Assembly (NCBI GenBank): GCA_000165345.1
Contig: CM000435.1
Span: forward strand, 96,001 to 160,000
Length of the DNA: 64,000 nucleotides
Direction: 5' to 3'
Both the position numbers and the translations under genes were made by a program. How positions within the stretch are numbered: the stretch's first letter is position 1; every line of letters begins with the position of its first letter. Of this stretch, positions 54,842 through 56,836 are shown piece after piece. The notes beneath the pieces were generated by a model. It saw only the letters and a program-made list of their open reading frames with translations, was not told where the DNA came from and searched no databases.

Positions 54842-56836
54842 TTAAATAGGTCCTCCCAATAGAGGAGAGTTGGTTGCTGTGGAACATGTTGTATATAAGT
54901 GTTGGTCATCACTAACTCTATTACTGACAAGATGTAAGTGACTTCCAACAAAATGCCCATTGTTTTGGTGTTTTTGGAAGAGCTTCAAGGACACAGGGTC
55001 TCTCTTATAATCGCCAGAATCATACTGAATTTCACTGCGCTCACCTTCTGCGAGTACTCTCTTACCAGAGAATCCATCAGAATTCTCCAAAAATTGAATC
55101 CTCGTGCCGCTCCTACCGCTGCTATTACTGCCCGTACCGATTCCATAATTCGCAAAATTGCCACTGCTTCCACTGCTTCCACCTCCTCCACCCATAAATC
55201 TTCCCTTTCCTACACCATGAACAAGTGTCTTATCATCCACATAACACCTGGATCCACCCAAAGAGTAAAACAACGAGGAGCATTGGAAAGCCCCTGGTGA
55301 ACCACTCACTGAACCCAGACTTGAATGCGGGGAAACCGGAATAGAACTTGGTGATGATAGCGAAAACGGAGTCATTATATTCGGCTGGCTCATCCTCGAA
55401 TGCATAGCAATCAAGTTGGAAACCCATAGTCCACTCAGTAACTTTTCCGGAATTACGTGGTGCTTATGTATCAGAATTACTCCTGAACATGTATCATCAA
55501 GAGGCATCCCTAAATGAATGCCCGCCTTTGCCCCTGCATGTTTGGCGCCGGCGCCGCTGTTTTCCAGTGCTTGGATGCTTTCCATTGACATGGAGATTAC
55601 TCTGCGAACAAGAGGATCAAGATAAGGCATAAAGGGTCTGATTCCAGTATCATAATCAAGTAGGCACAAGCTGTTATAAAGAATGTTCTGATGCGAAGGA
55701 AATTGGAGGATCGGGTCGTAACTTATTAGAATATTTATAAGAACACAGGCTGCGATCCTGCTACCTGGGACCAATAGGTTGAGTCCCGAGTATAAGGCAA
55801 GTTCGTGAGCAAACATAATCTTCTCAAATAAGTAGGCATAGTTTATCTTTTCACGGATTCCAAGGACTGCTTGTCCTACCGTTGTGCTTAGTCCAATCTT
55901 ATTGGCCCAACAGGCTCCCTTCTTACAACAGAGAACTTCATCAGGATTCCCAGTTATCATGTTCACATTACTGCAACTTCCATCAATCTTTCCATTATTA
56001 CTATTACTGGTTATATTCTGGGGAAAATTCTCTCTATTCTGGGATCCAAAAGGCCAAGAAGAGTCAGGAAGAACCTCTGATAAAGAGTTGTGGAGGGAAT
56101 CCATCAGGTGTTTAAGTCTTGATAAGTAATGCAGGGTCATATGAGCTGGAGTCTTATTTAGTAGAGAGGGCCCTCCATATCTGGATGTTTGAACCAATAG
56201 TTGAATCTGCATCTCAACAATATCCCTACTTGACCGAATAATTCCGCTGCTCTGAACAAATCTATGTAAAGGAGGTAATCCAGGACAATGCTTTCGATCA
56301 TGGCACTCGCCCAAGCACTCGCCTAAGGAGGCAGCTGTAACCACTGCTGCTGCAAACGTTGCTGCGAGAGAGCTTCTATCAAGCTTTCTTCTGGAAACTG
56401 GATCTCTCTCTAGGCAAAACATATATTGATCTATTAAGCTAGTGGCAATATGAAAAGTACTCTTTTCCCAGGCAAGTCTGTGTGCTACATCGCTGATCCA
56501 GCTCATAACGAGTTGTCTCTGATCAAGTTGTAGAAAGCATCCTGAAGTTGTATAGATACTATGGTGTACTTGAGCAAGCCTTTCCCTTCTATATAAGTCT
56601 TCCCAATCCATAAGGCTCATTGTTAATGACTCTTTTGGAAGTATATCTTGAAATCTACCAGAAATCATCCATCTTCTACATGTTGAAAATGACTTTGAGC
56701 CTCCCACATTGTTGTTATTATTCATAGAGCTAGAATTCTGAGCATTTATTTGAGCCTTTTCTCCTGTTATACCAATATTCTGGTTAACACCTCCAATATA
56801 CTCATTCTGACTAAATGCAACCTTATTATCCATCAT
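54842..56836 (-). CDS. Cyclin-fold protein (cyclin N-terminal domain) with Gly/Ser-rich tail; conspicuously GC-rich coding sequence
   Basis: Cyclin-box-like segment WEDLYRRERLAQVHHSIYTTSGCFLQLDQRQLVMSWISDVAHRLAWEKSTFHIATSLIDQYMF. By eye, local GC is roughly 45-58% against about 25-35% in flanking genes. Confidence 0.55.
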   Translation of the reverse strand: MMDNKVAFSQNEYIGGVNQNIGITGEKAQINAQNSSSMNNNNNVGGSKSFSTCRRWMISGRFQDILPKESLTMSLMDWEDLYRRERLAQVHHSIYTTSGCFLQLDQRQLVMSWISDVAHRLAWEKSTFHIATSLIDQYMFCLERDPVSRRKLDRSSLAATFAAAVVTAASLGECLGECHDRKHCPGLPPLHRFVQSSGIIRSSRDIVEMQIQLLVQTSRYGGPSLLNKTPAHMTLHYLSRLKHLMDSLHNSLSEVLPDSSWPFGSQNRENFPQNITSNSNNGKIDGSCSNVNMITGNPDEVLCCKKGACWANKIGLSTTVGQAVLGIREKINYAYLFEKIMFAHELALYSGLNLLVPGSRIAACVLINILISYDPILQFPSHQNILYNSLCLLDYDTGIRPFMPYLDPLVRRVISMSMESIQALENSGAGAKHAGAKAGIHLGMPLDDTCSGVILIHKHHVIPEKLLSGLWVSNLIAMHSRMSQPNIMTPFSLSSPSSIPVSPHSSLGSVSGSPGAFQCSSLFYSLGGSRCYVDDKTLVHGVGKGRFMGGGGGSSGSSGNFANYGIGTGSNSSGRSGTRIQFLENSDGFSGKRVLAEGERSEIQYDSGDYKRDPVSLKLFQKHQNNGHFVGSHLHLVSNRVSDDQHLYTTCSTATNSPLLGGPI

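Follow-up and report, generated by a model that had tools for sequence, protein, structure and literature searches.

A moderate, long-standing GC island coinciding with the cyclin-like gene cgd7_650 of Cryptosporidium parvum

We analysed a stretch of 64,000 nucleotides of the Cryptosporidium parvum genome (assembly GCA_000165345.1, contig CM000435.1, positions 96,001 to 160,000 of the forward strand; this whole stretch is called the window and all positions are given in its coordinates), in which the gene cgd7_650, annotated as encoding a cyclin-like protein, stands out by its high content of guanine and cytosine (GC). The GC island at this gene is real, statistically solid and of moderate size, it is confined to the open reading frame (ORF) in C. 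parvum, and it is both ancient and maintained. As to its origin, we consider it about an even bet (a probability of roughly 0.5) that the GC excess is explained by two additive components, namely a conserved protein core made of GC-encoded residues and a long-standing pressure toward G and C that is centred on the locus. The comparison set comprised the window and 10 loci from Cryptosporidium; compositional comparisons within the window were made against the 24 other ORFs of at least 150 amino acids.

The gene was identified as cgd7_650 because its product exactly matches the C. parvum Iowa II protein EAK90548.1 / CPATCC_003216 (C. parvum chromosome-scale assemblies) and because a published primer for quantitative PCR (qPCR) on this gene matches exactly at 55791-55812. 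The locus tag of the C. hominis orthologue is CHM_7g650. On its chromosome the gene is positioned at 181-203 kb of 1.36 Mb, about 190 kb from the end, and is not subtelomeric. Downstream it is flanked by cgd7_640, which encodes the helicase Prp16, and upstream by cgd7_660, a 'possible cyclin A' (57672-58520, minus strand). Neither cgd7_650 nor cgd7_660 was found mentioned in the main text of the literature searched, nor was a dedicated study of cgd7_650 found there.

54842..56836, minus strand: cgd7_650, complete intron-less ORF of 664 residues, annotated 'cyclin-like protein' (ORF listing and exact protein match).

The GC content of cgd7_650 is about 42.4%, against 29.2% for the window, with values of 0.466, 0.435 and about 0.371 at the first, second and third codon positions (GC1, GC2 and GC3), respectively. 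The 24 other ORFs have a mean GC content of 31.4% with a standard deviation (SD) of 3.5, so that cgd7_650 sits 3.2 SD higher; the pooled GC content of the other coding sequences in the window is 30.7%. A difference in GC3 from the flanking genes had been set beforehand as the test of the shift, and such a difference was found: 0.371 against a mean of 0.211 (range 0.08-0.31, SD 0.054; z=2.9), the GC content of the first two positions taken together (GC12) being 2.0 SD above that of the neighbours. The most GC-rich 1995-bp segment of the whole 64 kb (42.4-42.5%) begins at 54843, one base off the ORF start, and the best non-overlapping segment of that size reaches 36.7%, over the pair of genes for lactate dehydrogenase (LDH) and malate dehydrogenase (MDH). 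Within cgd7_650 the GC content peaks at 45.4% in 500-bp and at 50% in 200-bp windows, and ranges from 32% to 56% in 100-bp windows. The preliminary description of this DNA had therefore put the island exactly where it is, although its amplitude of 45-58% was too high for a mean of 42.4% and its span of 25-35% for all flanking genes was too narrow (24-41%, with LDH at 40.6%). The GC-rich word TGGCGCCGGCGCCGCTG that it reported inside the ORF does occur there once, at 55543-55559, where none is expected by chance. The intergenic DNA on either side is only marginally raised in C. parvum (28.5-29.7% GC, within a range of 11-34% for the intergenic DNA of the window), and the adjoining genes show mild shoulders in GC3 (0.26-0.34 in cgd7_660 and 0.22-0.29 in the proximal part of the Prp16 gene).

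The share of the amino-acid composition in this excess was estimated by back-coding the protein, in 2000 simulations, at the codon frequencies pooled over its 24 neighbours. The recoded gene has a GC content of 36.0% and a GC3 of 0.209 (SD 0.0145, highest of the 2000 values 0.258), against about 42.5% and 0.372 as observed, which puts the observed GC3 about 11 SD above the expectation. Since the recoded 36.0% lies between the observed 42.5% and the 30.7% of the other coding sequences, about 46% of the GC excess can be ascribed to amino-acid composition and about 54% to G/C-ending synonymous codons; the composition of the tail thus does not explain the whole of it. One explanation offered in the preliminary description, that the excess is driven by amino-acid composition, here by low-complexity parts rich in Gly, Ser and Ala, is right for that 46%, and it agrees with the raised GC12 and with the raised content of Gly (9.0% vs 4.8% in the other proteins), Ser (12.8% vs 9.2%) and Ala (5.1% vs 3.5%) and the lowered content of Lys (3.8% vs 7.4%). 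As the sole cause, however, it is refuted by the GC3 test (0.372 vs 0.209, z about 11, none of the 2000 simulations above 0.258) and retains next to no credibility: GC12 and GC3 are not coupled among the genes of the window (r=0.09), which was also the ground for rejecting such coupling as an explanation in its own right, the excess in GC3 is not limited to the tail but extends to the structured cores, and across species the composition of the tail follows GC3 instead of driving it.

The GC3 excess in fact runs along the entire gene, with values of 0.26-0.48 in every segment, structured cores and low-complexity parts alike. The segments are as follows.

56687..56836, minus strand, residues 1-50: variable, Asn/Ser-rich N-terminal segment; GC3 0.32, a GC shift smaller than in any other of the larger segments; 10% identical in C. 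parvum and C. muris.
56093..56686, minus strand, residues 51-248: conserved core 1, a divergent cyclin box with an invariant LGECLGECHDRKHCPG insert; 91-100% identity across the genus; GC12 0.46, GC3 0.34.
56342..56551, minus strand, residues 96-165: match to Pfam Cyclin_N within core 1 (22.7 bits, E=8.7e-5, threshold 23).
55919..56092, minus strand, residues 249-306: variable linker, with large Gly-rich insertions in C. ryanae and C. xiaoi (alignment); 14% identity to C. muris.
55562..55918, minus strand, residues 307-425: conserved core 2, presumed second helical (cyclin-C-like) domain with an LDYD motif; 75-100% identity across the genus; GC3 0.42.
55487..55561, minus strand, residues 426-450: Gly/Ala-rich variable loop (alignment, composition) with the peak local GC content of 56%; contains TGGCGCCGGCGCCGCTG.
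55265..55486, minus strand, residues 451-524: conserved segment past the second domain; 66-100% identity; GC3 0.45.
54902..55264, minus strand, residues 525-645: Gly/Ser-rich variable tail (alignment).
54845..54901, minus strand, residues 646-664: conserved C-terminal motif HLYTTCSTATNSPLLGGPI; 74-100% identity across the genus.

Over its full length the C. parvum protein has 68% identity to that of C. muris, against 25-58% for the products of neighbouring genes; the value amounts to 91% in core 1 (92-100% to the other species) and to 8-14% in the N-terminus, the linker, the Gly/Ala loop and the Gly/Ser tail. What had been described as a tail rich in Gly, Ser and Ala is indeed Gly/Ser-rich, but the enrichment in Ala resides mainly in the separate loop of residues 426-450.

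The orthologue of cgd7_650 has the highest or nearly the highest GC3 at its locus in all eight species compared, with an overall GC content that varies from 36% to 64%:

C. muris: orthologue GC3 0.26, neighbours 0.10-0.27.
C. xiaoi: orthologue GC3 0.34, neighbours 0.24-0.32.
C. parvum: cgd7_650 GC3 0.37, neighbours 0.18-0.31.
C. ubiquitum: orthologue GC3 0.37, neighbours 0.23-0.34.
C. meleagridis: orthologue GC3 0.39, neighbours 0.21-0.32.
C. ryanae: orthologue GC3 0.60, neighbours 0.28-0.51.
SRR31860986 sp.: orthologue GC3 0.69, neighbours 0.48-0.56.
C. felis: orthologue GC3 0.84 (gene GC 63.7%), neighbours 0.55.

Syntenic orthologues with the Prp16 gene directly downstream are present in C. 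meleagridis, C. ubiquitum, C. ryanae, C. xiaoi, C. muris and SRR31860986 sp. (the C. felis orthologue is situated on a short contig, and statements on synteny cover the other species only). Horizontal acquisition is what a sharply bounded compositional island in AT-rich surroundings classically hints at first, and the preliminary description had indeed suggested recent acquisition or gene conversion. This suggestion, conversion from a GC-rich donor included, is refuted by the synteny across the genus and can be discarded for practical purposes: the single-copy orthologues keep their Prp16 neighbour wherever the flanks sufficed, the deep-branching C. muris included, the shift is found in all species examined and persists even though synonymous sites are saturated between species, and no paralogue is detectable that could have served as donor. 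Moreover, the only relatives found outside the genus are eukaryotic and apicomplexan, namely a cyclin of a blastogregarine and a protein on one unplaced contig. Neither tRNA genes nor signs of mobile elements occur nearby, and the borders carry no long repeats.

The comparison between species also bears on the direction of cause between nucleotide and amino-acid composition. The GC12 of the conserved core is steady across species, at 0.43-0.51, whereas the GC12 of the variable segments follows GC3 and climbs from 0.35 (C. muris) to 0.60 (C. felis). Because the variable segments track GC3 and the core remains constant, the Gly/Ser/Ala-rich segments can be viewed largely as a product of nucleotide bias, so that the Gly/Ser tail is probably for the most part a consequence of the bias and not its cause, the reverse of what an amino-acid-driven shift would imply for these segments. 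In the GC-rich species the non-coding flanks are raised as well (0.54-0.67 in C. felis, 0.38-0.49 in C. ryanae and 0.40-0.44 in SRR31860986 sp.). Over the same syntenic 22 kb, C. ryanae has a GC content of 40.6% and its close relative C. xiaoi one of 32.0%, with 52% and 40%, respectively, for the cgd7_650 orthologue. Because the difference covers intergenic DNA as well, it points to a recent, lineage-specific and regional GC shift in C. ryanae. Both species are without the small cyclin gene upstream of the cgd7_650 orthologue and carry an ankyrin-repeat gene in its place, which constitutes a break in synteny.

At the level of codons the shift is general. At four-fold degenerate sites the frequency of C is 0.18 in cgd7_650 vs 0.08 in the neighbours and that of G is 0.13 vs 0.05, the share of G in two-fold purine-ending codons is 0.57 vs 0.26 (AAG 84% vs 30%), and codons that contain CpG are up 3- to 10-fold (CCG 21% vs 2%, ACG 15% vs 3%); TTC is not raised. 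An Akashi-type test showed no excess of G/C-ending codons where residues are invariant (Mantel-Haenszel odds ratio 0.82, Z=-1.06), GC3 being 0.32 at invariant and 0.36 at variable residues. The codon shift does not appear to stem from selection for tRNA-matched codons.

A broader form of selection at the nucleic-acid level, in which G/C-ending codons or a GC-richer mRNA would be favoured for abundance, stability or translation, has to be weighed separately, the more so as very high expression was among the causes first proposed for the island. The gene is fairly highly expressed: it appears in the top-500 lists of females and of in-vitro asexual stages, and its qPCR signal is well above those of cgd7_660 and of the gene listed just before it in the table. 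Selection of this kind would also be in line with the confinement of the C. parvum island to transcribed coding sequence, and studies across the genus favour selection behind GC-rich genes (PMC10438818, PMC8767354). The LDH gene (cgd7_480) serves as the sole reference gene here. It is the second most GC-rich gene of the window (GC 40.6%, GC3 0.286) and it shares with cgd7_650 the raised C-ending codons, AAG and GAG, which again suits an effect of expression, but G-ending four-fold codons are not raised in it (0.04), and the rise of these and of CpG codons is seen in cgd7_650 and not in LDH. Since the LDH transcript is far more abundant than that of cgd7_650 (log2 11-13 in all sorted stages) and its gene nevertheless reaches a GC3 of only 0.286, expression may contribute to the GC3 of cgd7_650 but cannot account for 0.37. 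The enrichment of rare CpG-ending codons, the absence of a G/C-ending preference at conserved residues or of excess RNA structure, and the accompanying shift of variable-segment amino acids and non-coding flanks in the GC-rich species argue in the same direction, and we therefore regard expression-related selection as the cause of the island as possible but rather unlikely.

The sequence might alternatively be constrained by a second functional element that overlaps the ORF, such as an antisense gene, a structured RNA or internal E2F-type sites. An antisense ORF of 120 residues is present at 54938-55300, and an E2F-type doublet GGCGCCGGCGCC lies within the ORF and is kept in C. meleagridis. 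Long antisense ORFs are, however, expected by chance in GC-richer DNA, a single 12-bp site cannot account for a shift over 2 kb, and synonymous divergence is normal throughout: at four-fold sites cgd7_650 differs by 0.13, 0.44 and 0.66 from C. meleagridis, C. ubiquitum and C. muris, against 0.12-0.23, 0.35-0.47 and 0.47-0.62 for the neighbours, i.e. its divergence is normal or slightly high. Neither an Rfam scan nor a tRNA scan gave a match, and in comparison with shuffled sequences the folded RNA had no extra stability (z +0.87 and -0.11). Constraint at the nucleotide level was rejected on the basis of the normal synonymous divergence, the lack of an Rfam match and the folding scores near zero, and an overlapping element as the source of the island is accordingly very improbable.

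In the explanation that we prefer, that of two additive components, cgd7_650 is a single-copy, vertically inherited gene with a protein core that barely changes across the genus. The first component would be this core of GC-encoded residues (Gly, Ala, Ser, His, Arg and Pro are more frequent in it, and Lys, Glu, Ile and Asn less so), the GC12 of which purifying selection would keep at about 0.45. The second would be a gene-wide, locus-centred and long-standing pressure toward G and C that would lift every synonymous codon family and, in unconstrained segments, push the amino-acid content toward Gly, Ala and Ser; its strength would be low in the AT-rich species and high in C. felis, C. ryanae and SRR31860986 sp. 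Its source would most likely be GC-biased fixation (e.g. biased gene conversion at a spot that remains recombination-prone) or a local mutation bias. These are to be preferred over selection for tRNA-matched codons because the codon pattern is general, conserved residues show no enrichment, and the GC12 of the variable segments and the flanks shift along. We infer that the pressure represents biased fixation of a non-adaptive kind and not selection for GC content.

That the shift is maintained follows from substitutions on the C. parvum and C. meleagridis branches, which were polarised by parsimony with C. ubiquitum as outgroup (a procedure that is biased with a distant outgroup). Within the bounds of this bias, changes from weak to strong base pairs (W>S) and the reverse (S>W) are balanced in cgd7_650 (27 and 27, vs 150 and 75 in the neighbours), and the equilibrium GC3 that follows from them, 0.38, is the same as the present one. 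This balance speaks for maintenance and does not single out the force behind it.

Several observations weigh against a locus-centred, non-adaptive pressure. By the same biased parsimony the rates per site (W>S/S>W) are 0.041/0.067 in cgd7_650 and 0.036/0.065 in the neighbours, that is, they do not differ. In a chromosome-scale test no sign of biased gene conversion was found in C. parvum, which offered only eight chromosomes (Pessia et al. 2012, PMC5635611). The C. parvum island ends sharply at the ends of the ORF, where a regional process should spill over more, and a hotspot that lasts across a whole genus would be unusual. Finally, a position-independent pattern of this kind would equally be expected of selection on GC content, which gains from the sharp ORF boundaries in C. 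parvum together with the fairly high expression of the gene. The boldest version of our explanation, in which cgd7_650 is a gene-centred site of GC-biased fixation that has lasted throughout the Cryptosporidium radiation, with a weak effect in C. parvum and C. muris and an extreme one in C. felis, is a distinctly doubtful proposition. If true, it would provide the first locus-level evidence in the genus for biased gene conversion and for a conserved recombination-prone site, and would suggest that the GC-rich regions on the chromosomes of C. felis and C. canis have grown from such seeds and not through selection.

Gene conversion tracts with a GC bias are known from recombination hotspots in yeast, mammals and birds (Pessia et al. 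2012, PMC5635611). The enrichment at cgd7_650 resembles them in being local and independent of codon family, in concerning G- as well as C-ending codons, and in reaching unconstrained non-synonymous sites and, in some species, flanking non-coding DNA. It differs from them in that no W>S excess was detected (by the biased parsimony), in that the boundaries of the C. parvum island follow the ORF and in that no chromosome-scale signal has been reported for C. parvum.

The genes of AT-rich Cryptosporidium species mostly have a GC content of 10% to 40% (Li et al. 2021, PMC8767354), and 'class 3' genes of more than 40% number 65-600 per AT-rich genome (Li et al. 2023, PMC10438818). The enrichment in C. 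canis and C. felis is concentrated toward the chromosome ends, in genes for proteins with disordered regions; the authors consider its mechanism unclear and mention recombination (PMC10438818). With 42.4% GC in an AT-rich species, i.e. above the 40% limit of that class, a rise at all three codon positions that is largest at the third, low-complexity segments, and orthologues in strongly GC-enriched regions of C. felis and C. ryanae, cgd7_650 conforms to this known class of GC-rich genes (PMC10438818, PMC8767354). It departs from the class in that it lies about 190 kb from a chromosome end and is not strictly subtelomeric, in that its core is under very strong purifying and not positive selection, and in that it does not encode a secreted host-interaction protein; neither study singles it out.

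The island is neither foreign DNA nor an assembly artefact nor a hidden RNA, and it needs no special annotation. It is a modest curiosity of a described class, in a gene the protein of which is uncharacterised and very strongly conserved within the genus. Because in all species examined the orthologue reaches the local GC maximum or comes close to it, cgd7_650 is a tractable locus at which biased gene conversion and selection could be told apart, something that genus-wide studies have left open.

The cyclin box claimed for the product corresponds to the Cyclin_N (PF00134) match at residues 96-165, which at 22.7 bits (E=8.7e-5) falls just short of the curated cut-off of 23.0; it is a near miss, and all 10 orthologues match at E<=0.01. 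There is no Pfam match to Cyclin_C. An exhaustive phmmer search of 1.84 billion representative proteins yielded Cryptosporidium proteins and only three weak matches outside the genus (P0010, P0011 and P0012). Of these, P0012 is a protein of the blastogregarine Siedleckia nematoides (library-wide E 6e-4) that passes Cyclin_N at 43.8 bits and is colinear with residues 69-243 (E=2e-12) and 336-415 (E=6e-4) of cgd7_650 in BLASTP, whereas P0010 was rejected as a repetitive, spurious match. Because P0012 aligns colinearly with both conserved halves, cgd7_650 can be considered homologous to a cyclin that passes the threshold. P0011, from the one unplaced contig, aligns over residues 107-406, and the LDYD motif of core 2 lies inside the colinear matches to both P0011 and P0012. 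A profile search of 5.8 billion proteins added nothing beyond Cryptosporidium, no orthologue was detectable in Toxoplasma or Plasmodium, and searches of the PDB gave only cyclin E1 at E=0.6 by sequence and no match by profile. AlphaFold2 models are of low confidence, with a mean predicted local distance difference test (pLDDT) score of 29 at full length (10 orthologues) and of 37 for the core alone; the predicted secondary structure is all-helical in both cores. Judged by its sequence, the product appears to be a divergent two-domain cyclin-like protein with a narrow known distribution.

Apicomplexan cyclins in general have a weak similarity to canonical cyclins over the approximately 100 residues of the cyclin box and share otherwise nothing with them (Roques et al. 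2015, PMC4643991; Hawkins et al. 2022, PMC8822342), and three 'orphaned Group I' cyclins have been described in Cryptosporidium (Roques et al., PMC4643991). The product of cgd7_650 is like these atypical or orphan cyclins (PMC4643991, PMC8822342) in its weak cyclin-box similarity, and unlike them in its Pfam score just below the threshold and in having relatives limited to Cryptosporidium, Siedleckia and one unplaced contig. With a core of 91% identity even between the most distant Cryptosporidium lineages, its fairly high expression and no orthologue detected in Toxoplasma or Plasmodium, it would be a reasonable candidate for a genus-specific regulator of the cell cycle.

Its neighbour cgd7_660 scores above the thresholds of both Cyclin_N and Cyclin_C. 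The two genes are alike in standing in tandem on the same strand, in encoding a cyclin box and in having upstream E2F-type sites, and cgd7_660 has the second-highest GC3 of the window (0.31). They differ in that cgd7_660 evolves very fast (25% identity between C. parvum and C. muris, vs 68% for cgd7_650 and 91% in its core 1) and in that its qPCR signal is far lower. A tandem duplication was rejected, as no mutual similarity is detectable.

The palindrome GGCGCC is present 14 times in the window (446, 26256-26267, 29450, 34806, 37419, 38986, 44986, 46625, 55544-55555, 57354, 58978 and 58991), whereas shuffled sequences lead one to expect 0.42; of these sites, 11 are intergenic. The palindrome forms the core of TGGCGCCA, an E2F-type motif reported to be the commonest promoter motif in C. 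parvum (PMC3734150). Two occurrences concern cgd7_650 (motif count, no strand assigned):

55544..55555: palindromic doublet GGCGCCGGCGCC of two E2F-type cores, encoding Gly-Ala-Gly-Ala; kept in C. meleagridis.
57354..57359: E2F-type core GGCGCC, 518 bp upstream of the cgd7_650 ATG.

The latter is likely a promoter element of cgd7_650, to which we tentatively assign it on the basis of motif and position. Two further GGCGCC sites are located about 460-475 bp upstream of cgd7_660, and the doublet GGCGCCGGCGCC is also found in intergenic DNA at 26256-26267. Between cgd7_650 and cgd7_640, upstream of the Prp16 start codon (54640-54700), we observed TTTCCCGCC (reverse complement GGCGGGAAA), which matches a second published E2F-like motif, TTTGGCGGGAAV.

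Within the cyclin box, a 12-bp tandem repeat at 56303-56327 (residues 171-185) encodes LGEC-LGEC as part of the invariant stretch ASLGECLGECHDRKHCPG. This insertion contains three Cys and two His in 11 residues and is identical in all 10 Cryptosporidium orthologues; it is not kept in the Siedleckia homologue, and P0011 has a partial CEHKH. From its residues it might possibly be a metal-binding or redox site. In the tail, the 9-bp unit CCACTGCTT is repeated in 2.4 copies at 55161-55182 and encodes GSSGSSG. The length of the orthologues varies at this repeat (664 residues in C. parvum, 667 in C. hominis, with three additional residues in the Gly/Ser tail, 661 in C. tyzzeri and 663 in C. meleagridis), which could thus serve as a small indel marker for typing.

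The LDH and MDH genes form a tandem pair, with MDH (cgd7_470; 34% GC, GC3 0.18) at 20451-21401 and LDH (cgd7_480) at 21820-22785, both on the minus strand. A smaller GC bump (38-43% in 200-bp windows) at 54000-54535 covers the N-terminus of Prp16 (cgd7_640) and is likely caused by amino-acid content, since this N-terminus is Arg/Gly-rich (GRGQIKGGGRDGGQGRVWRGRSR). Further upstream of cgd7_650, beyond cgd7_660, follow a syntaxin-like gene and a gene for a WSD1-type acyltransferase. Directly downstream of cgd7_660, at 57569-57645, AT-rich microsatellite-like repeats ((AT)n, ATTT and ATATATAA) have a GC content of 19.5% and form the sharpest local contrast with the island.

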